From: Candidatus Peregrinibacteria bacterium
GTDB taxonomy: Bacteria > Patescibacteriota > Gracilibacteria > UBA1369 > LOWO2-01-FULL-3
NCBI GenBank assembly: GCA_018655275.1
Contig: JABIJZ010000002.1
Location: 195,748-235,747, forward strand
Direction: 5' to 3'
Length of the DNA stretch: 40,000 bases
Below the pieces are notes generated by a model. The model searched no databases and was not told where the DNA came from. It saw only the letters and a list, made by a program, of their open reading frames with translations. The position numbers and the translations under genes were made by a program. Position 1 is the first letter of the stretch; the number at the start of each line of letters is the position of its first letter. Positions 25,642 through 37,270 of the stretch are shown piece by piece.

Positions 25642-27285
25642 ATGACAACCAATAATTGTAAAACCTGCTCAGCCAAATACGACATCACCCCTGAAGACGA
25701 GAAATTTTACGCAAAACTAGACCTTCCATCCCCCACTCTCTGCCCAATCTGCCGAAACAAACGCAGAATGGCTTGGCGCAACGACCGAAGCTTCTACATA
25801 CGAAAATCAGATAAATCAGATGAACAATTCATTTCAATATACCCAGAGAAAACTCCTTTCCCAGTATGGAAACCCGCAGAATGGTACGCAGAAGACTGGG
25901 ATCCCCGCGATTACGGCCAAGATTACGACTTCAACAAACCATTTTTCGAACAATGGAACGAACTCCTCCAAAAAGTCCCACGCCTAGGCATCGACATCGT
26001 TCACTGCGAGAATTCAGAATACTGCAACTACTGCGGAGACGACAAAAACTGCTACCTCGACATCGCCGGCGAAGCCAACGAAGATTGCTATTTCAATTTA
26101 TTCACAAAATACTCACGCGACTGCGCAGACAACACCTTTGTATACAAATCAGACCTCTGCTACGAATCTCTTCACTGCCACACCTGTCACAACGTCCGCT
26201 ACTCAATGCACATGGAAGGATGCGCAGACTGCGCATTCTGCTTTGACTGCAAAAGCTGCCAAAACTGCCTCTTCTCATACAACCTCCGCCACAAAAAATA
26301 CTACATTTTCAATGAAGAACACACAAAAGAAGAATACGAAAAGAAACTCAAAGAACTCAACCTCGGCTCATACAGCAACACACAAATAAGCCTCCAAATT
26401 TGGGAAGACAAAGTCATCAACAAAGCCATCCACCGCGACCAATACAACGTCCAAACCGAGGAATGCTCAGGCAACAACATCAAAAACTCAAAAAACTGCC
26501 GCGAAACATACAACGCAACAAACTGCTGGGACTCAAACTTCTTGTACGACGTCCTAGACACCAAAGATTGCTACGACCTCAACTATTCACTATACAAACC
26601 CGAAGTCGCCGCAGAGCTCATTTCTACACTCAACATGAGATACTCAGCCTGCAACATGGCCTCTCACTACTGCCACAACACATTCTACTGCGACATGGTC
26701 AACAACTCAGACTACTTATTCGGCTGCATCTCGATAAATCGCGGCCATTACTGCATCCTGAACAAACAATACACCGAAGAAGAATACAAAGAACTTTTCC
26801 CAAAAATCGTCACCCACATGCGCCAGACTGGAGAATGGGGCGAATTCTTCCCAGCCAAATACTCCCCTCCCGGATACAACGAAACCATCGCCCAAGAATA
26901 CTTCCCCTTAACCGAAGAACAAGCAAAAAAAGAAGGCTTCAATTGGAAACCAAAAGACAAAACCCCACCAAAGCCCCAGACATACAAAATTCCAAACAAC
27001 ATCAAAGACGTTCCAAAAGAAATCACAAAAGAAATCCTCGCCTGCGAAACCTGCGGCAAAAACTTCCGCCTCATCGAACAAGAACTCAAATTTTACCGCC
27101 GCCAAGAGATCCCAGTCCCCCATACTTGCCCAGACTGCCGCCACGAAGCCCGCCACCGCCTCCGCAACCCACGCATACTCAACCAACACAAATGCGGAAA
27201 ATGCTCAGCCCCAATCACAACCACCTACCACAAAGAACTCCCAAATATTTACTGTGAGAAGTGTTATTTGGAGAGTGTGTATTAG
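25642..27285 (+). CDS. cysteine-ladder protein, long form with N- and C-terminal Zn-ribbon caps (547 aa)
   Basis: N-terminus reads CKTC..FYAKLDLPSPTLCPICRNKRR. Two Cys-ladder modules follow. C-terminus reads CETC..FYRRQEIPVPHTCPDCRHEAR..CGKC..CEKC. Confidence 0.85.
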   Translation: MTTNNCKTCSAKYDITPEDEKFYAKLDLPSPTLCPICRNKRRMAWRNDRSFYIRKSDKSDEQFISIYPEKTPFPVWKPAEWYAEDWDPRDYGQDYDFNKPFFEQWNELLQKVPRLGIDIVHCENSEYCNYCGDDKNCYLDIAGEANEDCYFNLFTKYSRDCADNTFVYKSDLCYESLHCHTCHNVRYSMHMEGCADCAFCFDCKSCQNCLFSYNLRHKKYYIFNEEHTKEEYEKKLKELNLGSYSNTQISLQIWEDKVINKAIHRDQYNVQTEECSGNNIKNSKNCRETYNATNCWDSNFLYDVLDTKDCYDLNYSLYKPEVAAELISTLNMRYSACNMASHYCHNTFYCDMVNNSDYLFGCISINRGHYCILNKQYTEEEYKELFPKIVTHMRQTGEWGEFFPAKYSPPGYNETIAQEYFPLTEEQAKKEGFNWKPKDKTPPKPQTYKIPNNIKDVPKEITKEILACETCGKNFRLIEQELKFYRRQEIPVPHTCPDCRHEARHRLRNPRILNQHKCGKCSAPITTTYHKELPNIYCEKCYLESVY

Positions 27286-28000: not shown

Positions 28001-28936
28001 ATGAACGACCCAAAACAAATCGCCGAGAACTTCGTCCAACTCTACCGAGAATTAGTTCATCGCGAACCACACATTTCAGTCCACGTATGGCTATCCGACA
28101 ATTCCGACTATTGCGACCAAATCGACCGCTGCAAAAACTGCTATCTCGTTTTCAACAGTCTCCAATCCGAAGACTGCATGTATATGTACGACTCAAGATG
28201 GAGCAAAAACTGCAGCGACATATCTTACTGCAATCATTCAGAACTCTGCTACGACTCTCTCGATCTCGAAAAATGCTACAACTGCGACCACTGCCAAGAC
28301 TGCACAAACTCAAATGACTGCCAATACTCATACGATCTTCGAAACTGCAACAACTGCCTCGGATGCGCAGGCTTGAGACACAAAAACTACCACATTTTCA
28401 ACAAACCTTACTCAAAAAAAGAATACGAAGAGCTCACAAAAAAACTCCTTAAAAATCCAGGGAAAATCGAAAAACAGCTCGAAAAGCTTTGCCTCGAAAT
28501 CCCTCACGTCGCTCTCCACACCCAAAACACAGAAAACTGCTTCGGGAACTACGTAGTAAACTCCAAAAACTCATACTGCATCTTCAAAACACACAATCTC
28601 GAAGATTGCATGTATATGCACGACACCCAAAGAGAAAAAGATTGCATGGACTGTTTTGTAGGAAACGAATCAGAACTTGCTTACGGCTGCACCGAAAACT
28701 CCAAAATCTACAATTGTAATTTTTCATACTGGTGCGCCAACAACATCGATTGCGAATACATGATGTATAGCTTCAGCTGCAAGAACTGTTTCGGATGTTT
28801 CAACCTCAAACACAAAGAATATCGCATTCTCAACAAACAATACACGAAAGAAGAATACGAAAAACTCCTCCCAGAAATCAAAAAATCACTCCGAGAAAAA
28901 GGCCAATACATGAACTTCCTACCAGACGTAATGTAA
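28001..28936 (+). CDS. cysteine-ladder protein, short form (311 aa)
   Basis: Alignable with 24330..25262 and has the same two cap motifs (CLGCAGLRHKNYHIFNKPYSKKEYEEL and CFGCFNLKHKEYRILNKQYTKEEYEKL). Confidence 0.8.
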   Translation: MNDPKQIAENFVQLYRELVHREPHISVHVWLSDNSDYCDQIDRCKNCYLVFNSLQSEDCMYMYDSRWSKNCSDISYCNHSELCYDSLDLEKCYNCDHCQDCTNSNDCQYSYDLRNCNNCLGCAGLRHKNYHIFNKPYSKKEYEELTKKLLKNPGKIEKQLEKLCLEIPHVALHTQNTENCFGNYVVNSKNSYCIFKTHNLEDCMYMHDTQREKDCMDCFVGNESELAYGCTENSKIYNCNFSYWCANNIDCEYMMYSFSCKNCFGCFNLKHKEYRILNKQYTKEEYEKLLPEIKKSLREKGQYMNFLPDVM

Positions 28937-29647
28937 TTATTTCTCCCAATTTGGGTTTTCCGTCTCAACCCTCAACCTCCAAGCCCCCCAAGGAACATCT
29001 TCATAATCAACAAACGCCCAATCAACCCTCTCCATCCCGTCATGCCCCAAACATTCAGCCATTTTTGGCGAAAGATCCAAACCAGCCCCAAAATTCACAA
29101 GATTCTTAGGCTTTTTCGCACGTCCAAAAACGTAATCAAAATCATCTTCAACAAACGGCCCAACATCCTCTACTTGCCCATAACAAACATTCCTGTCCAA
29201 TCGAACAGCCACCCACCTGTTTTTCACAAAAGAATAATACGGGTTTGCAACAACCATCCTTTCATCATACCAAGGAATATCTGAGACATCATCCCTACCC
29301 AAATCATTGTAAGGAACTGCCACATAATAAGGATTGGAACTATCCGCATAAGGATACTCCCAAGCAGAAGGCACATTCGAAATTCCTCCGTTGTAATTCT
29401 CTTCATCAAAAGAAGCCTCTTCTCCAAACCAAAAAACAGTGCTCATAATATCTTTATGCAATTTGTAGGCAGGAGCTTTTTGCACCACACGTTTAACCAC
29501 ACTTCTCTCAACACTTTTCTCCACCCTCTCTACTCGCGAAGATCCACCCAAACGCACACGCGCCAAAGCTTCTCCTGGCACATACCCCCCAAACAAAGAG
29601 CCAGCTATCAGAACCAACACCAAATTAATTTTAAAAATCTTTTTCAT
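28937..29647 (-). CDS. secreted protein with a tentative RlpA/expansin-like double-psi beta-barrel domain
   Basis: I prefer the ATG at 29647, giving signal peptide MKKIFKINLVLVLIAGSLFGG. The C-terminal ..VAVRLDRNVCYGQVEDVGPF..GLDLSPKMAECLG.. resembles DPBB motifs. Confidence 0.55.
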   Translation of the reverse strand: MKKIFKINLVLVLIAGSLFGGYVPGEALARVRLGGSSRVERVEKSVERSVVKRVVQKAPAYKLHKDIMSTVFWFGEEASFDEENYNGGISNVPSAWEYPYADSSNPYYVAVPYNDLGRDDVSDIPWYDERMVVANPYYSFVKNRWVAVRLDRNVCYGQVEDVGPFVEDDFDYVFGRAKKPKNLVNFGAGLDLSPKMAECLGHDGMERVDWAFVDYEDVPWGAWRLRVETENPNWEK

Positions 29648-29723
29648 GCCAAGACATCCTAACCTATTGTTCGTTCTCTGGCTACAAAACCTCTCCCTCA
29701 CCTCCCCACTCCTACACAACAGG

Positions 29724-29752
29724 TTGACATTTTTCAACTTTTATACTACAAT
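29724..29752 (+). promoter_or_regulatory. promoter TTGACA-17-TACAAT
   Basis: Hexamers read directly, 21 nt upstream of the ATG at 29773. Confidence 0.5.
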
Positions 29753-29772: not shown

Positions 29773-32700
29773 ATGAGTAGTAAAGAAACAGGTAGATGGG
29801 AACCATCTCAAAGCCAAATGGTTACACGCGTATGGACCCCTGACGAAGTCGAGGAACAAACAGCCCCCGAGGGAGAAGCTTTGCGAACCCTGTCCACAAT
29901 TTACAGCAGGAGAATCAAAATAATGGCCGCAGAAAAAGACGCCTTGCCAGGAAAACCAAGAGCAAAAAGACTTCAACAACTCATCGGGAAAGTAAAACAT
30001 GACATAGCAACAAAAAGACGCGCAGGAGACTCTCACGAAAACAGAATCCAATACATAAAAGAATCCGCAGAGATCAAAGAAATCCAAAGACTATATCTCG
30101 AACTCGGAATAGCAGAAATGATAGTGCTCGGAGATTGGAGCGTTAGCAGGACCAGCGAAATCCCAGAAGCAATGGGGATAGATTCCGGACCACACGAAAC
30201 AGCCCCATTTGCAACACTGGAATCAGAGATTCTATACTTCTATGAAGAACATGGGGTAGTAGATGCATCAAAACTAGGAGACAAGCTAATTCACATGGAC
30301 ATAGGGTGCGGAAATGCAGTAGTAGGACAATCTCTAAGAACCGACAACCTCACAAGTCCATTTGGAAACAACCGAACTTTACCAGACTACTGGGGAGAAG
30401 TAGGGTTCGCAGATAGAATGTACTTCTCAATCAATGACCTCATCGCATCATTCATAAAAGAAGAGCACAGAGAAAACCCAGCCCTTCACGAATTCATCAA
30501 CACAGTAGCAACTCTCCTCACAAGAAGACTTTACTTCGGGAAAGACAAACTTGACCCAACATTAGCAAAACTCCCATCAGACCCAAATCAAATCGTAAAA
30601 ATCTTCAAAAAACTACATTTTTTCATAAAAAACTTCAGCACTCTATTGAACCCAGATAAAAAAACAATGGTAGACGTAGAATTTTTATCTGACGAAGCAA
30701 GCCAATTGACACCAGAATGCAGAGAGTTAGTAGAAGAATATTTCTACGGCCCAGAAATTAGAGAGAAAATTGAGAACAGCACTTCAGCAGTATGGATAGG
30801 AGACCACCAAAATCGAACAATCTTTGTAAATCGCAAATTTTGCGAGATGACAGGTAAAACCAAAGAAGAGCTGAAAGGCAAAACTAAAGAAGAACTAAAT
30901 CTATGGCGAGCCACAAAAGGAAACCTTGGTGACCCAAAAAGAGAAGGAACACTAAAACTCGCAACTGGCTTCAATGCAAATGTAAACTTGCACTCACCAA
31001 GACTAGGACCTAAGGCAGTAATTATAACCATGCCAGGCGAAACAGAAGAACAACACCTTTCGCAGACCCTAATAACAAGTCGCGAAAGATGGCAAACCAA
31101 AGTCGAAGAGTACGAGAAAACAGCCTCACAAGAATTCCTCGACAAATACTTCAAACCTGAATTCCACGGATCAACAAAAAAACTAGATGAACAAATCGCA
31201 AAATTAGATGAAAAACTTGCAGAAGCCGAAAGAATCCGAATAGAAATCCACGAAGCTGCAAAAGCCGCATACGCAACATTCACACAGCCTATAACCCCTG
31301 ATGCACAAAAGACGATAGAATCAGAGAGAACAGCAGTCAACCAAAGAAGAACAGCTTGGGAAGACACCAGACAACAACTAACAGACGAAAGACGTCACCT
31401 AATTGACCAAAGAGACCTCCTCAACCTAGCAAGCCACGTGACAATTCACCCCCACAACGTAATACTAGGAGACTTCGACGAATTTGGGGAAATAATACCA
31501 GATCAACCCCTTATAAACTTAGCCACATTATTCAGGTCTAGCTCCCACGCAACAGACACTCAATACACAAAACTGACAGAAACAACAGCCAAAAGACTCG
31601 CACCCGGAGGAATCATAGTATGCGACGGCAAAAAAGAGTCATACACAAGATTCGAACGACTGGAAGAACTCGAAGCACTACAAAAAAAACTCGGCACAAA
31701 CTACAAAATAAGCGCAATTGTAGATACACAAGGAGCAATAAGATCTATCTTGATAGAACGCATATTAGTAACTAAAGAAAATAAAAAAGCATTCTTTTCA
31801 GACGATCATAAAGAAGAAGCATTAATCCCAGACTGCTCACTCATACCAATATCAGACGTTCAAACCCATCTACCTAGACTAGCATTCAAAAACCGCATAA
31901 TAAAAGCTCTCAAAGAACTAATCATAGATCCAAGAGTCAAAGCAGCACCAGAAGACAAAAAAGGAGATACCCTATTCCAAAGCAGACTACTTTTCAAAGG
32001 TATACACGAAATAATAGACGCAGTTGTAGAAAAAACTGAAAACCTCGACGAAGCAATCCTCCAAATAGCCCAACAATCAGACCTAGTTCGCCAACAACTA
32101 GACGCATCAAAACAAGGAACATCACTAATGCATCCGGACTTTAGAATCACAACATACCCTAGAAAAACCAAAACACTTTCGGAACCAACCAACGAAACAC
32201 GATCCTTCAGAGCCCAATCACTTCCAAGAAATCTAGACATACCAAACTTAAACCACCCAGCCATCGAATACCATAAGAGAATAGCAATAAATTGCTTACT
32301 AAAACTGAGACTATTCACAGGCAAATCACCAATAAAAGTAATTGAATTCGAAGGGTGCTTCACAAACACTCCAATGATAACAACATTACGAAACCTACTC
32401 GGACAAAACTTCGAAGACCTTGTAGAAATAGAAACCGTATCTCCTAACAACCCTGCTCCAAACATTGACGACAACACCATATATATCATCGGAGGCAGTA
32501 TAAAATCAGTCAACGACCCAGAAGGCAAACAATTCACACAAAATTTTTCACAAAAGCTACTAGAAAGAATCCAGGAAGGTGCCAACATACGAGCATACGC
32601 AACATGCTATGGATCAGAAAGTATATTAGAAGCCTTTGGAAACATGAGAGATAACCTAACAGTAGAAACAACACCGGGAGCCCTACAATTTGGAGCATTT

Positions 32701-33231
32701 CCAATAGAATTCACTCAAGACACCACCCCCTCAACAGAGCATCTAGCCGGCAAACAAGCAACAGTCACATTCACAAGAGGAGAATACTCAGAAGTAGAAG
32801 GCTATGAAGATGTCGACGACATGCAACCACTCGCATTCGAATGCAAAGAAGATGAACAAGGAGAACTAGTCACAGACCCATCCCGACCAATAAGCTTTTC
32901 ATTGCTAGACGGAGCAGTAATCACAGCCCAACCTCACTTCGAAGTTAACCTAAAAAGAGAACAAGACCTCGAAACCCTCCGCAGACACCTACAAAGATCG
33001 GCAAGAGAAACAACATCAGAATTTAGTCCAACACAAACAACCACAAACGAAAAAGAACGACACAAGTTCACAACAAACCCATCACACATCTACACTCACC
33101 AAGTAGATATCCCAGCTGTAAACGCCCAAGGTACAAAAACTCAATGGCTTGAAAACGACGTAGGAGCAGCATTATTTGCGCCAATACTAGCAACACACGC
33201 AAAAAAAACCTTAAACCAGCTAGCAACCTAA
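29773..33231 (+). CDS. 1152-aa multidomain protein: interrupted SAM-methyltransferase-like region, PAS-like region, coiled coil, and C-terminal class I glutamine-amidotransferase-like region
   Basis: Motifs: HMDIGCGNAVVG (aa ~174), AVWIGDHQNRTIFVNRKFCEMTG (aa ~339), a heptad-like Glu/Lys/Ala-rich stretch (aa ~430-550), LGDFDEF..AKRLAPGGIIVCDG (aa ~565-619), and IYIIGGS..AYATCYGSESILEAFG..AQPHFEV (aa ~903-1057). Confidence 0.8.
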   Translation: MSSKETGRWEPSQSQMVTRVWTPDEVEEQTAPEGEALRTLSTIYSRRIKIMAAEKDALPGKPRAKRLQQLIGKVKHDIATKRRAGDSHENRIQYIKESAEIKEIQRLYLELGIAEMIVLGDWSVSRTSEIPEAMGIDSGPHETAPFATLESEILYFYEEHGVVDASKLGDKLIHMDIGCGNAVVGQSLRTDNLTSPFGNNRTLPDYWGEVGFADRMYFSINDLIASFIKEEHRENPALHEFINTVATLLTRRLYFGKDKLDPTLAKLPSDPNQIVKIFKKLHFFIKNFSTLLNPDKKTMVDVEFLSDEASQLTPECRELVEEYFYGPEIREKIENSTSAVWIGDHQNRTIFVNRKFCEMTGKTKEELKGKTKEELNLWRATKGNLGDPKREGTLKLATGFNANVNLHSPRLGPKAVIITMPGETEEQHLSQTLITSRERWQTKVEEYEKTASQEFLDKYFKPEFHGSTKKLDEQIAKLDEKLAEAERIRIEIHEAAKAAYATFTQPITPDAQKTIESERTAVNQRRTAWEDTRQQLTDERRHLIDQRDLLNLASHVTIHPHNVILGDFDEFGEIIPDQPLINLATLFRSSSHATDTQYTKLTETTAKRLAPGGIIVCDGKKESYTRFERLEELEALQKKLGTNYKISAIVDTQGAIRSILIERILVTKENKKAFFSDDHKEEALIPDCSLIPISDVQTHLPRLAFKNRIIKALKELIIDPRVKAAPEDKKGDTLFQSRLLFKGIHEIIDAVVEKTENLDEAILQIAQQSDLVRQQLDASKQGTSLMHPDFRITTYPRKTKTLSEPTNETRSFRAQSLPRNLDIPNLNHPAIEYHKRIAINCLLKLRLFTGKSPIKVIEFEGCFTNTPMITTLRNLLGQNFEDLVEIETVSPNNPAPNIDDNTIYIIGGSIKSVNDPEGKQFTQNFSQKLLERIQEGANIRAYATCYGSESILEAFGNMRDNLTVETTPGALQFGAFPIEFTQDTTPSTEHLAGKQATVTFTRGEYSEVEGYEDVDDMQPLAFECKEDEQGELVTDPSRPISFSLLDGAVITAQPHFEVNLKREQDLETLRRHLQRSARETTSEFSPTQTTTNEKERHKFTTNPSHIYTHQVDIPAVNAQGTKTQWLENDVGAALFAPILATHAKKTLNQLAT

Positions 33232-34484
33232 ACCATCGCCGCAAGCGACAACTCTATAAGCTTCGCATATTTTTCAATAAATTCATTCTCAAAAATCTCC
33301 AACTTCTTTTCAGGACTAGTATATAGAGACAAAGTTCCAACCAATTTAGACTTGAAAACCAAAGGAATCAAAAGCAAAGAACAGAGATTGTTTTTATTAG
33401 CCAAAAACTTCGACTGATACTTTGGATCCTTCATAACATCAATGATTTTCACAGACCCCTTCTGAACAAAAGCCTTCTCAGCCAAGCCCCCTTTGTATTT
33501 AATACTAGCTTTGCCTTCCCAATCATTTGCCAAACCAAAAGAAGAAAGAAGATCCAACGAATCTCGTTTTTGATTATATAAGCGCAAAACGCACGCATCC
33601 ACTCTCGTCAGCATAATTATAGAACTAACAACGAAATCAGCCATACTCTTCAAATCTCCAGAGCTCCTACAAACATCCAAAAGCTCAAACACATAATCCA
33701 TCTGCCTACGGATCACACCAAATTTATTATAAGCCTCTTTCATTTTCCTATACTTCAACTCCACATCCTCTTCAAACTTAACCTGATTCGTAATATCCCT
33801 AGCAATAATCAGATAAAACGAAACCTTCTTCTTACCTTCAATAAAGATAGGCGTCAATGTCGCAGCAACCAAAATCTTTTTCTTATTTTTGTGCTTCCCC
33901 TCAAGTTCAATATTGTAAATAACTTTAGAACTACTAATAATTTCCCCAACATCCCCTCGAGAGAAAATCCTGCTTATTTTCGCACCAACCATTTCCACCC
34001 CCTTGTATCCAAAAATTATTTTAGCCCCTTTATTCCAAGACTTCACCTTCCCATCCGGATCAAAAGTAATAACTGCATTCGTTGAATATTGAATAGCTTG
34101 ACTGAGAACTTTTTCTTCCTCCTCCTTTTTTTTCAAGTCAGTGAGGTCAGTCATTATACCAATAGTCCCACCATCCGGAAGAGGCGCCCCACTCAAAAGA
34201 ACAGGCACAATCTTCCCATTCTTCGTCAACAAATCCCCTTCATAACTAGAACTAACCCCTTTTTTACGCTCAGAAGTATTCACATTTCTCACTCTCTTAA
34301 CACTTTCCTCAGTCCAAAAATCATAAGACTCCCTCCCTATCATATCCGGCAACTTATAACCAACCATCTTACAAAACTTCGGATTAGCATAAACAGTCCT
34401 TTCATTTTTATCACCAACCCAAACACCTTCATTCATCGTATCAATCAAAGTTTTATAAATCTTACTGTCTGCCAATTTTTTCAT
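33228..34484 (-). CDS. PAS-PAS-GAF sensor protein without a recognisable output domain
   Basis: 418 aa from the ATG at 34484 (the track ORF extends to 34517). Contains two PAS-like blocks (..GVWVGDKNERTVYANPKFCKMVG.. and ..NAVITFDPDGKVKSWNKGAKIIFGY..) and a C-terminal GAF-like region. Confidence 0.8.
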   Translation of the reverse strand: MKKLADSKIYKTLIDTMNEGVWVGDKNERTVYANPKFCKMVGYKLPDMIGRESYDFWTEESVKRVRNVNTSERKKGVSSSYEGDLLTKNGKIVPVLLSGAPLPDGGTIGIMTDLTDLKKKEEEEKVLSQAIQYSTNAVITFDPDGKVKSWNKGAKIIFGYKGVEMVGAKISRIFSRGDVGEIISSSKVIYNIELEGKHKNKKKILVAATLTPIFIEGKKKVSFYLIIARDITNQVKFEEDVELKYRKMKEAYNKFGVIRRQMDYVFELLDVCRSSGDLKSMADFVVSSIIMLTRVDACVLRLYNQKRDSLDLLSSFGLANDWEGKASIKYKGGLAEKAFVQKGSVKIIDVMKDPKYQSKFLANKNNLCSLLLIPLVFKSKLVGTLSLYTSPEKKLEIFENEFIEKYAKLIELSLAAMV

Positions 34485-35610
34485 ATATTTTTTTACGAGT
34501 ATGTTTACTATGAACATGATCCAACCACTCTCTCTTCACACAATCTTTCTCAGATTTTTTGATCTCAACACAATCTCCACTCATCAACCTATAATATATA
34601 TCCTGCTTCCCCCCATTTACAATAGCTGATCGAGCTTTGTGCCCCAAATCAGAATGCAAATGATAAGCAAAATCAACAATAGTAGAACCATTTTCCAATT
34701 TGAACAAATCTCCTTTTGGAGTAAAAACATACACATCCTTCAACTCTTCATCCCCTTGCGAAAGATCCGAGAAATGTTCAACCAATTTCTTTTCCTTTTC
34801 CGTAACCATCTTCGACTTTTTCCCCTTTGCATACAACCAATGAGCAGCAAATCCCTTTTCCGCAAAATCATCCATCGCCCTCGTCCGAATCTGTACCTCA
34901 ATAGGAATATCCAACTTTTCAACAACTTCAATCAATCCAGTATGCAAACTCTGATACCCATTGATCTTCGGAATAGTCACATAATCCTTGAAATAATCCA
35001 CAACCGGATAAAACCGATCATGAAACAAATTCAAAACCTCAAAACACTCATCCACCGAATTCGACTCTAGAACAATCCTGAACGCAAAAATATCATTCAA
35101 TTTAATAGCACTTTTCTTCATTTTTTTTCGAAGTTTTTTGTTGATACTATAAAGATTCTTGTATCGTCCCTTCACCTCACACTCATACCCCTCCTCCTTC
35201 AAAAACACCCGAAAAACTCTCAAAACTTTATTCACAAGACTTTTAGAATTATTTTTATAAACCTTCATCATCTCATCAACATCCTTATACCTTTCATCAT
35301 CAGTAATTTTGAAACAAAGATCATCTAGCAAACTTTTTTCATTAAAAAACCCAAATCTCTCGCATAACTGCGAAAGAACCAACAAATATCTATTCGCCAT
35401 TTTTTTCTCCAATTTCTGATCTTCACACAAACCCAACTGAGTCCTGAAAACTTTGACGAATTCATAAAACACCTCTGGAGATTTAGAAAAACTAGAGAAA
35501 AAATACTGAGAAATCGACTCCAGATTTTTCGCAGACTCATTAACATTCACCAACAACCCGAGCCATCGCTCAAATTCTTCTTTACCTAAATGGATTTTCT
35601 TTAAAACCAT
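34462..35610 (-). CDS. RelA/SpoT-homolog (p)ppGpp synthetase with TGS domain, lacking the catalytic half of the HD hydrolase domain
   Basis: 382 aa. Synthetase motifs GRYKNLYSINKKL, DIFAFRIVL, PKINGYQSLHT, EVQIRTRAMDDFAEKGFAAHWLY. TGS motif VYVFTPKGDLFKLENGSTIVDFAYHLHSDLGHK. The N-terminal ~140 aa has no HD dyad. Confidence 0.85.
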   Translation of the reverse strand: MVLKKIHLGKEEFERWLGLLVNVNESAKNLESISQYFFSSFSKSPEVFYEFVKVFRTQLGLCEDQKLEKKMANRYLLVLSQLCERFGFFNEKSLLDDLCFKITDDERYKDVDEMMKVYKNNSKSLVNKVLRVFRVFLKEEGYECEVKGRYKNLYSINKKLRKKMKKSAIKLNDIFAFRIVLESNSVDECFEVLNLFHDRFYPVVDYFKDYVTIPKINGYQSLHTGLIEVVEKLDIPIEVQIRTRAMDDFAEKGFAAHWLYAKGKKSKMVTEKEKKLVEHFSDLSQGDEELKDVYVFTPKGDLFKLENGSTIVDFAYHLHSDLGHKARSAIVNGGKQDIYYRLMSGDCVEIKKSEKDCVKREWLDHVHSKHTRKKIYEKIGRQ

Positions 35611-35656: not shown

Positions 35657-37270
35657 CTACCACACCTCCCCCAAATAACATTCCTGACAATAGACCTTCC
35701 TGTCAAAATCTTCAGCAAACGTCGTCTGCACAACCTCCCCACACTTCGAACATTTCCGATCAAACAACTTACGCGGCCCCATTTTCTCCCACAACTTATC
35801 AATCCGCACAGCCGGCGCAAGCACCGGCAACGGCAAACCATATTTCTTATAAAACTTCACCTCCGCATCAAGATATTTGAACTTTTTCCCACTCTCAGGA
35901 CAAACAAAAATCTCCTCGTCCACCTCTTCAGCCAAACCACCCTTCTCCCCCGAAACCACCTCTTTCTCATCCATCCATTTCCAACCCTTTTTCAAAACCT
36001 CAGCCTTCTCCAAAGGATAAAACCGCTGAGCCATAGTGAAATTATAAGGATGCGGTGAATATTCAACCGGGAAAAACTCGCCATATTCACCAGTCCCCCG
36101 CATATGCTCAACAATCCGCTCCTTCAACGCAAAATACTCCTCCTCCGAATACTGTTTATTCAAAATACAAAACTGCTTGTGCTTCAACCCAGCACACCCA
36201 AACAAATTCCGACAACTCCTCAATTCAATACAATAATAAATATCCGTAGAAAACCACGGCAACTGCGAAAACTGCTGATTGTAAGCCTTCGGCCCCGCAT
36301 GCAAACACTCATACATCAGCTCCCCCTCATAGATATTCGTATCATAGCAATCCTTGGAATGATGAATGTCCGTGCAATATCGACAATCTTTGCAATTATC
36401 CACCCAATAACAATCCTTCACATTTTTGCAATTCGACAAATAATCCCCCGAGCTCTCCTCAACATTTATCAAAACTCCCGAAGGATAAACTTGGTCCTTC
36501 ATAAACTCATCAAATCGCTCCCGAGCTCCCTCCAAATCTTCCCGACGACCAGTAAAAATCTCTGCCCAAGCTTTTTCAAACTCCTCCTTCCCCACCGATT
36601 TATTAAAAATACAATATTCCTTATTTCTCAAATTCGCACAAAACAAACACTTCCGGCACCCCTTACAATTCATCAAAAACGCCGAATCATTACAATGAAA
36701 AACATTCTGCGAACAAAAAACCGAATAGCACTTCTCCGCCTTCCGCAAATCATACCCAATCTCCGAATCCCGCACAAAAATACACTCAACCATGTTCTTG
36801 CAATACTGAATATTATACCCGTAATAACAATCCCACGAGCCATCCATCTCATCCGTAAAATAACAATTTTTGTTGCGATGCGCACAGATAATATATTCAC
36901 TATTCGTATTCAAAACCGAATTCGAAATATGCCTCGGCACCTCCCTCGCCATCTCAAAAAACTGCTCAAAAAACGGCCGGTCAAAATCAAAATCCCGCCC
37001 ATACTCCATCGCATCAAACTCCTCAGACTCAAAACAATCATTGCAGTAAGCCTTGAGCCCCTCAATGTCCGGCGAAAACCACGACATCGTCGTCCGCTCG
37101 CATTTATCACACGCCCTCATAAAAAAATCCTTCCCCCGCCAAGCCCATCTCCGTCTCTCACGCTCCGCAGGACACAAAGTCGGCAACGGCGCCTCAATCT
37201 TGCGATAAAACTCCTGATCCCCATCAGTAATCTCAAATTTCTCTCCCGAAACTGCACAAATCTTTTCCAT
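35657..37270 (-). CDS. cysteine-ladder protein, long form (537 aa) with eroded Zn-ribbon ligands
   Basis: Collinear with 25642..27285, including the FFEQ linker, both cap motifs and GEYGEFFPVEYSP. The first ribbon at each end has lost Cys residues (CAVSG, CPAER, CPESG, LAPAVR). Confidence 0.85.
   Translation of the reverse strand: MEKICAVSGEKFEITDGDQEFYRKIEAPLPTLCPAERERRRWAWRGKDFFMRACDKCERTTMSWFSPDIEGLKAYCNDCFESEEFDAMEYGRDFDFDRPFFEQFFEMAREVPRHISNSVLNTNSEYIICAHRNKNCYFTDEMDGSWDCYYGYNIQYCKNMVECIFVRDSEIGYDLRKAEKCYSVFCSQNVFHCNDSAFLMNCKGCRKCLFCANLRNKEYCIFNKSVGKEEFEKAWAEIFTGRREDLEGARERFDEFMKDQVYPSGVLINVEESSGDYLSNCKNVKDCYWVDNCKDCRYCTDIHHSKDCYDTNIYEGELMYECLHAGPKAYNQQFSQLPWFSTDIYYCIELRSCRNLFGCAGLKHKQFCILNKQYSEEEYFALKERIVEHMRGTGEYGEFFPVEYSPHPYNFTMAQRFYPLEKAEVLKKGWKWMDEKEVVSGEKGGLAEEVDEEIFVCPESGKKFKYLDAEVKFYKKYGLPLPVLAPAVRIDKLWEKMGPRKLFDRKCSKCGEVVQTTFAEDFDRKVYCQECYLGEVW

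Follow-up and report, generated by a model that had tools for sequence, protein, structure and literature searches.

Class I methyltransferases are built on a sheet of strand order 3-2-1-4-5-7-6, in which β7 is antiparallel, and carry a (D/E)xGxGxG motif (motif I) at the end of β1 as well as an acidic residue at the C-terminal end of β2 that binds ribose hydroxyls. The class I glutamine amidotransferase (GATase1) fold occurs in the GuaA-type enzymes, including GMP synthase subunit A (1wl8/2d7j), T. thermophilus GMP synthetase (2ywb) and Thermotoga TM1158 (1o1y); the homoserine O-acyltransferase MetA/HTS has a fold similar to that of GATase1, in which a Cys-His-Glu triad forms the acyl-enzyme. 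The present analysis concerns a single large gene located within a 40,000-nucleotide (nt) stretch of DNA from a Candidatus Peregrinibacteria bacterium (assembly GCA_018655275.1, contig JABIJZ010000002.1, positions 195,748 to 235,747; hereafter the window), the product of which appears to unite these two folds with a third, the PAS domain. Specifically, the methyltransferase sheet is predicted to be opened between β2 and β3 by a lid that accepts nested sensor modules, and to be fused to an amidotransferase (Table 1). All three folds are well known, but their arrangement has no entry in Pfam, NCBIfam or PADLOC, public records call such proteins hypothetical, and the architecture together with its fixed genomic partnership is undescribed in curated libraries or in the literature searched.

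The family to which this protein belongs differs in definable ways from its closest described counterparts. With generic class I methyltransferases (Methyltransf_11/12/23/25; RNMT, 5e9j/3bgv; METTL6, 8owx) it shares the GxGxG motif I, the acidic residue at the end of β2, an 'hh..SH' sequence after β4, L-x-P-G-G in β5 and, as modeled, the seven-strand order; it differs by a break of 117-632 residues between β2 and β3 (328 here) and by R-x-S-S-H and D-G-x-R-E-S-Y-T-R-x-x-R motifs for which no counterpart was matched. The GuaA-type amidotransferases share with it the fold and Cys-His-Glu triad, the GG(S) oxyanion motif, the C-x-G-x-Q elbow and the Q-x-H-x-E motif, with profile E-values of 5e-9 to 1e-7 and Foldseek E-values of 2e-6 to 4e-5 at an identity of just 11-18%. 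Unlike the GuaA type, the family is fused to a methyltransferase fold and lacks an ATP-pyrophosphatase or other known synthase partner, while the window protein has Glu in place of the elbow Gln and scores far under the NCBIfam equivalog cutoffs. By Foldseek, MetA/HTS (2vdj, 2ghr, 7cbe) is matched best, at 4e-7 and with a target-based TM of 0.62, but sequence profiles give this likeness no support, and the GGS motif and GuaA-like profile matches of the family point to amidotransferases. The interpretation favored here, and considered reasonably probable, is that the large protein is a signal-regulated multi-domain enzyme in which a split class I methyltransferase with a lid and sensor insertion is joined to a GATase, and whose activity is integrated with that of a neighboring PAS-GAF sensor and Rel-type synthetase.

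Evidence for the split methyltransferase is derived primarily from homologs. When 1.84 billion cluster representatives were searched exhaustively by phmmer, the large protein matched 174 of them at E<=1e-3, of which 80 reach <=1e-10 and 29 reach <=1e-30; ~35 among the weakest matches are PAS-only, and the family comprises ~110-140 clusters. Typical relatives are 1000-1300 residues long and match in three co-linear modules, an N-terminal (N) module at residues ~100-330, a middle (M) module at ~550-720 and a C-terminal module at ~840-1070 followed by a C-terminal tail, and more than 40 full-length homologs have this same architecture. In intact homologs the N piece aligns, below threshold, with the first ~17-25 positions of Methyltransf_11/12/23 and MTS, and the M piece aligns with the final ~40-50 positions of Methyltransf_25/11/12. 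When the insertion was removed in silico, by joining the equivalents of window residues 150-226 to those of 553-700, the spliced homologs produced single alignments running from profile position 1-2 to the end (e.g., 2-97 of 97), some of which reach gathering thresholds: P0009 scores 28.0 bits against Methyltransf_25 (cutoff 27), 27.6 against Methyltransf_23 (27) and 21.8 against Methyltransf_11 (21.2), and P0006 scores 27.8 against Methyltransf_25 (27). Profile hidden Markov models of the two halves were both found in 73 proteins, with N preceding M in 73/73 and 117-632 residues between them. Additionally, when a profile of 34 spliced sequences was compared with the PDB, the top 14 matches were all S-adenosylmethionine (SAM)-dependent methyltransferases from several unrelated families, and the alignment with cap guanine-N7 methyltransferase covers both halves.

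Structure prediction agrees with this assignment. The AlphaFold model built from an 80-sequence alignment has a mean predicted local distance difference test (pLDDT) score of 87.7 and a predicted template modeling (pTM) score of 0.81; a single-sequence run (pLDDT 37.8) was useless. In the model, the N-half contributes β1 (172-177), αA (183-189) and β2 (207-213), after which the chain enters the insertion, and the C-half contributes β3 (563-565), αC (568-574), β4 (581-586), αD (595-607), β5 (609-617), αE (630-640), β6 (644-651) and β7 (656-663), the last two forming a hairpin. The modeled chain thus has seven strands in class I order, αB being replaced by the insertion that separates β2 from β3, and from this order the two halves would be predicted to reassemble into one sheet. 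Foldseek against viral structures added further methyltransferase matches, all of them weak.

A number of positions of the predicted methyltransferase domain are conserved within the family. Motif I of the window protein, MDIGCGNA at residues 175-182, corresponds to family positions G178 (67/73), G180 (70/73) and G182 (63/73), the last being Ala in the window, and Asp214, kept in 63/73 members, directly follows the modeled strand 207-213, a position that suggests it is the acidic residue of β2. Elsewhere, conserved residues include F568 after β3, S591 and H592 after β4, L609, P611, G612 and G613 in β5, and, within the loop that follows β5, D618, G619, S623, T/S625, R626 and R629; among these, F568, H592, S623, R626 and R629 are nearly invariant across the family. 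In the N-terminal helical region, G120, D121 and R126 of the LGIAEM..GDWSVxR motif are invariant among close homologs. The conserved positions fit a working methyltransferase pocket, and SAM binding and methyl transfer by the large protein are predicted from motifs and model.

The insertion itself is composed of conserved and variable parts. Kept family-wide are residues 215-330, which include DPN and D-x-EF, as well as FLDKYF at 453-460; given this conservation, and given that the shortest inserts still measure ~117-130 residues, the helical lid subdomain is integral to the module. The PAS-like block is by comparison a rare, nested, lineage-specific addition. Residues 331-378 pass PF00989 (24.7 bits, cutoff 22.6) and TIGR00229 (30.2 bits, cutoff 22.9), the sole detection by Pfam or NCBIfam in the intact large protein, and the match is partial, covering the N-terminal ~45 profile positions (5-52) alone. 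The module is also short for a PAS domain (~90 residues) and sits within the insertion of another domain; its modeled strands (339-343, 349-353, 391-395, 401-405, 417-419), with helices between, follow the PAS-like order of two strands, helices and three strands at a pLDDT of 40-60, a low value attributable to the few homologs that carry the module. Among the homologs examined, the block is full-length in the window protein and P0004 alone, at an identical insertion point, and partial in P0119; only the window protein reaches the Pfam PAS threshold. Derivation of the block as a recent copy of the first PAS domain of the neighboring sensor gene was considered and is unlikely, as the two are 35% identical and unrelated PAS proteins score higher (P0074, 49%). 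The three long helices that follow are modeled at a pLDDT of ~76-95; Glu, Lys, Arg, Gln and Ala make up 0.44-0.54 of residues 451-550, and helix 469-504 has a strong heptad pattern (hydrophobic fraction 0.90 at a/d positions vs. 0.31 elsewhere). Both the PAS-like block and the Glu/Lys/Ala-rich probable coiled coil that had been read from the sequence are therefore present. The largest insertions of distant members contain no domain recognizable by Pfam.

Further support for the integrity of the split module can be found in a sister group. Four distant matches (P0084, P0096, P0113 and P0140) combine an N-terminal receiver (REC) domain with the split module and have no GATase domain, and they share the motifs DW-V-x-R, motif I (or a degenerate form of it), GxA(D/N), FLxxYF, S-x-S-H, L-x-P-G-G and ESYTR. 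Retention of this motif set by receiver-domain proteins indicates that the split module is one evolutionary unit that has been repeatedly wired to signal-input domains. Two of the sister-group contigs encode, downstream and on the same strand, a PAS histidine kinase, a single-domain receiver and a partner-switching set of RsbW/STAS/SpoIIE type.

Several lines of evidence bear on the C-terminal domain. PF00117 is matched at E<=1e-3 by 19/43 full-length homologs, and the Pfam GATase threshold (22.8) is passed by P0007 (best, 41.5 bits) as well as by P0005, P0003, P0010 and P0002. The 80-member family profile matches TM1158 (1o1y) at 5e-9, GMP synthase 2ywb at 8e-9, 1wl8 at 2e-8 and γ-glutamyl peptidase 9k7i at 1e-4 in the PDB, and all 38 PDB matches of the alignment-based model at E<=1e-3 in Foldseek (38/38) have the GATase1 fold: MetA/HTS, TM1158, GMP synthase, aminodeoxychorismate (ADC) synthase, γ-glutamyl hydrolase, formylglycinamidine (FGAM) synthase and CTP synthase, with MetA, TM1158, GMP synthase and γ-glutamyl hydrolase at 4e-7 to 1e-4. 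Cys945, His1055 and Glu1057 of the window protein (A-T-C945-Y-G-S-E; Q-P-H1055-F-E1057) align with the corresponding positions of the family G-x-C-F-G-x-Q and Q-F-H-P-E motifs, in which Cys is kept in 67/74, His in 60/65 and Glu in 63/65 members, and the GGS oxyanion motif is present in ~68-70 of 74. On the strength of the Pfam, PDB-profile, Foldseek and triad evidence the GATase1 assignment is sound, in keeping with the GATase1-like C-terminus that the original prediction described.

That the large gene is a real coding gene, and not a chance open reading frame (ORF), is evident from its composition: codon position 1 is G-rich and T-poor, position 3 has A 0.54, C 0.27 and G 0.07, and these values agree with those of the other plus-strand genes in the window. 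The ORF and the motifs quoted for it by the original prediction were all recovered (Table 1), as was the promoter claimed for it. This sigma-70-type promoter-like site scores at 11/12 positions, the best in the region; TTGACA-N17-TAYAAT has no other match across the window, and 0/100 shuffles yield one. Its -10 element ends 20 nt before the large-gene ATG, ahead of which no Shine-Dalgarno sequence is evident. The DNA of the region is 100% identical in an independent assembly and near-identical over part of its length in two others, and the 1152-residue gene has been called at the same position on a 1.2 Mb JGI contig that carries the neighboring PAS-GAF protein. In the first of these assemblies, from ENA (L009:7170-9515, identical to window ~30744-32588, minus strand), the large gene is missing and antisense shadow ORFs of 242 and 207 residues, plus two small ones, are annotated instead; antisense calls of this kind probably explain the absence of the full-length protein from some protein collections.

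Table 1. Coordinates of the large gene, its domains and motifs, its neighbors and sister-group genes (window numbering unless a contig is named).
Feature	Position (nt)	Strand	Residues	Remarks
Large gene ORF	29773..33231	+	1152 aa	ATG start, TAA stop at 33229-33231
Sigma-70-type promoter-like site TTGACA-17-TACAAT	29724..29752	+		divergent intergenic region ~71 nt
N-terminal helical region	29872..30207	+	34-145	family motif LGIAEM..GDWSVxR
Methyltransferase N-half (predicted)	30208..30414	+	146-214	β1 LIHMDI, GxGxG-type motif I GCGNA, αA, β2 ending Asp214
Motif LIHMDIGCGNAVVG	30286-30327	+	172-185	
Conserved helical lid part of insertion	30415..30762	+	215-330	conserved DPN, DxEF
PAS-like module nested in insertion	30763..31035	+	331-421	few family members; low-confidence model
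Three long helices	31045..31437	+	425-459, 469-504, 509-550	coiled-coil-like, variable length, conserved FLDKYF
Methyltransferase C-half (predicted)	31438..31776	+	556-668	β3 VIL-GDF, β4 then SSH, αD, β5 LAPGGIIVCDG, ESYTRFER loop, αE, β6-β7 hairpin
Motif VILGDFDEF	31459-31485	+	563-571	
Motif AKRLAPGGIIVCDG	31588-31629	+	606-619	
Mixed helical linker region	31777..32322	+	669-850	conserved LPRN motif
Class I glutamine amidotransferase fold	32323..32958	+	851-1062	GGS oxyanion 907-909; Cys945 nt 32605-32607; His1055 nt 32935-32937; Glu1057 nt 32941-32943
Motif IYIIGGS		+	903-909	
Motif AYATCYGSE		+	941-949	Cys945 codon TGC
Motif AQPHFEV		+	1052-1058	
C-terminal helical tail	32959..33228	+	1063-1152	conserved in close homologs
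PAS-PAS-GAF sensor gene	33228..34517	-	429 aa	convergent; stop overlaps large-gene stop in CTAA
RelA_SpoT synthetase + TGS gene	34462..35610	-	382 aa	upstream of PAS-GAF gene, same strand, overlapping
Divergent upstream gene	28937-29737	-	~254 aa	signal-peptide-like N-terminus MKKIFKINLVLVLIAGSLFGG
Cys-rich protein	25642-27285	+	547 aa	treble-clef zinc-finger ends
Cys-rich protein	28001-28936	+	311 aa	same Cys-rich repeat character
Cys-rich protein	35657-37270	-	537 aa	treble-clef zinc-finger ends
Sister-group gene (P0096)	L012:664-3321			
Sister-group gene (P0084)	L013:789-3668			

Relatives of the large protein are named in public records as 'hypothetical protein' or 'GMP synthase-like glutamine amidotransferase', and their named sources are metagenome-assembled genomes of Candidatus Peregrinibacteria and Peribacteria, in addition to relatives in which UGA encodes Gly. 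Of the homolog searches, the exhaustive one alone uncovered the family. Word-indexed homolog searches with the full protein, the 80-sequence alignment or the spliced alignment returned no match, though homologs exist; a scan of GTDB genomes with the single large protein likewise returned none, and the same scan with a 14-sequence alignment found three loci. phmmer of the large protein against the PDB gave solely a spurious match to a de novo helical protein, NCBIfam has no model for the family and reports only sub-threshold GATase matches, PADLOC gives no defense-system match and holds no family model, and no description of the family was found in the literature. The claim that no described protein has this combination therefore holds with respect to curated libraries and public names, but the protein is not a singleton, being one member of a sizeable uncharacterized family that is restricted, within the sampling available, to Peregrinibacteria/Peribacteria and their UGA=Gly relatives in the Candidate Phyla Radiation (CPR). 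The gene for P0050 (GCA_040777565.1, L011:128-3679) has 37 in-frame TGA codons at family-invariant Gly positions, and the database products of P0050 and other distant members have Trp in these columns, so that in P0050 GDWSVNR is read WDWSVNR and LAPGG is read LAPWW. The location of TGA at invariant Gly columns indicates that UGA is read as Gly (code 25) and that the public products were mistranslated with code 4.

The genomic setting of the large gene is conserved on one side. In the window, the stop overlap at 33228-33231 leaves no space for a terminator between the large gene and the PAS-GAF gene, which in turn overlaps the Rel gene by 56 nt (34462-34517); within the first ~147 residues of the Rel-type protein, which is short, no HD hydrolase domain is detectable by Pfam. 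Ten contexts were examined, namely the window, L001-L007 (L002, GCA_900089805.1; L003, Peribacteria; L004/L005, Peregrinibacteria), L011 and the P0002 contig. In every one of them a PAS/GAF sensor gene is convergent with the large gene and overlaps its 3' end by 4-44 nt, save that the gene visible on the P0002 contig is classed only as convergent and overlapping. A RelA_SpoT-TGS gene follows the sensor gene in all 6/6 contexts long enough to contain it (the window, L002-L005 and L011), the remaining four contigs ending inside or just after the sensor gene. As L011 uses code 25, the association spans lineages with different genetic codes. Upstream genes vary between contexts; unlike the downstream neighbors, the divergent upstream gene of the window, which has no Pfam match, is not conserved beside large-gene homologs. 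A functional link of the large gene with the PAS-GAF/Rel pair is likely.

From these features a working scheme can be inferred for the large protein. The chain would leave the Rossmann sheet after β2 and return before β3, the excursion forming the conserved helical lid with its lineage-nested modules. The putative methyltransferase pocket would be lined by GxGxG, Asp214, the SSH that follows β4 and, beyond β5, the Arg-rich ESYTRxxR loop, a composition that suggests an anionic substrate, and the lid with its PAS module may gate this pocket. The GATase domain would hydrolyze a γ-glutamyl amide, be it glutamine or some other, and would thereby provide a second catalytic step or sense glutamine/nitrogen, and the activity of the whole enzyme may be integrated with the neighboring PAS-GAF sensor and Rel-type alarmone synthetase. 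That the methyltransferase-fold domain serves as the acceptor of the ammonia is speculation.

A number of observations weigh against this scheme. The window protein itself matches no methyltransferase or amidotransferase model of Pfam or NCBIfam when intact, even at E<=10, and its sequence alone gives no Pfam GATase match; spliced, it still finds no methyltransferase in Pfam. The split methyltransferase of the original prediction is largely supported by its family, in which the halves co-occur and some spliced homologs match full profiles up to Pfam thresholds, and by the class I order of the model; the window sequence itself lies below profile detection. Moreover, the E-values of the spliced profile against PDB methyltransferases are marginal (0.013-0.04), and the Foldseek methyltransferase matches are weak, aligning ~100-150 columns of apparently the C-half alone. 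All of this would be compatible with a chance resemblance of motifs in two unrelated pieces, the N piece having some other fold and the middle piece being an incomplete Rossmann-like domain. Such a coincidence is nevertheless very improbable, given that one half matches the beginning and the other the end of the same profiles, that joined they align over the full length, that their order is the same in 73/73 proteins despite variable spacing, that the sister receiver-domain proteins keep both, and that a confident model has exactly seven strands in class I order. Even less credence, close to none, can be given to the idea that the ORF is an annotation or assembly artifact, whether a chimeric fusion or a long non-coding frame. 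The antisense ORFs annotated on identical DNA in one public assembly could be cited in its favor, but the same DNA recurs in an independent assembly, the gene is called on the 1.2 Mb contig, its codon-position composition is typical, and the full-length homologs with the same architecture number more than 40; homology and conservation lead to its rejection.

The remaining objections concern activity and partnership. The elbow of the window protein departs from the family GxCxGxQ in having Ala943 for Gly and Glu949 for Gln, P0014 and P0015 have lost both Cys and His, which means that catalysis is not universal in the family, and in about half of the members His replaces the acidic residue of motif I. 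Together with the constant association with signaling genes, these departures raise the prospect that one or both folds are pseudoenzymes and that the protein acts chiefly in sensing or scaffolding, for example as a glutamine- and/or SAM-binding regulator of Rel/PAS-GAF without turnover. This appears improbable, as most members, the window protein included, retain the full triad, GxGxG and Asp214, and the near-invariance of F568, H592, S623, R626 and R629 is the pattern of a working active site. More deserving of consideration, if still the less expected outcome, is that the C-terminal domain is a stand-alone Cys-His-Glu hydrolase or acyltransferase of GATase1 fold (γ-glutamyl peptidase/hydrolase or MetA-like) instead of an ammonia-channeling glutaminase, its chemistry being independent of or sequential with that of the methyltransferase, for instance by deamidating or deacylating a substrate that is then methylated. 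Neither the protein nor its conserved neighbors contain a synthase or ammonia-acceptor domain recognizable by Pfam, and the best Foldseek matches are homoserine O-acyltransferases (2vdj, 4e-7; 2ghr), with γ-glutamyl hydrolase (1l9x) also matched; γ-glutamyl peptidase 1 (9k7i) is matched by the family profile. Sequence profiles, however, prefer GuaA-type glutaminases, true amidotransferases typically have the GGS oxyanion motif and the C-x-G-x-Q elbow, and the pTM of 0.81 suggests a fixed inter-domain arrangement that would be compatible with channeling. With regard to partnership, the large gene is convergent to its neighbors, is not co-transcribed with them and does not form one operon, and overlapping 3' ends alone could keep genes adjacent without a functional link.

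The signal-regulated, two-fold enzyme favored here is significant in several respects. Among the many unknown proteins of CPR bacteria it stands out by an unusually clear and testable architecture and by its link to alarmone signaling, and it offers a concrete candidate for the coupling of nitrogen or methyl-donor status to stress signaling in uncultured bacteria with reduced genomes. It also serves as a warning, since both catalytic domains escape standard single-sequence domain annotation and the gene itself was missed in one public assembly. A more daring proposal, hardly likely on present evidence, is that the large enzyme, the PAS-GAF sensor and the Rel-type synthetase constitute an unrecognized CPR nutrient-signaling unit in which the enzyme would use glutamine and SAM to modify a guanine nucleotide, an alarmone or Rel itself. 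Were this true, the large enzyme would represent a new kind of second-messenger-modifying or stringent-response-controlling enzyme, and its lid insertion would serve sensor modules generally as a place to dock, with PAS in the present protein and REC, fused to the same module, in the sister group.

Two further features of the window were observed. The 547- and 537-residue Cys-rich proteins that flank the locus are full-length paralogs (33% identity, E 2e-102); Peribacteria proteomes have been noted for high cysteine content (PMC4736985). Additionally, the window (1-40000) displays a very strong strand asymmetry regardless of gene orientation, in which third codon positions on the plus strand are rich in A and C: plus-strand genes have ~A 0.5, C 0.25 and G 0.08 at this position and minus-strand genes ~T 0.43, G 0.33 and C 0.06. 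The extremes of skew are +0.46 for AT and -0.56 for GC, the cumulative GC skew drops almost monotonically, and the C>G strand is the one that carries the rpoA/ribosomal cluster. A comparable disparity between G and C has been reported for some Microgenomates genomes, but Peregrinibacteria are said in the same paper to have typical skew curves (PMC7143001).

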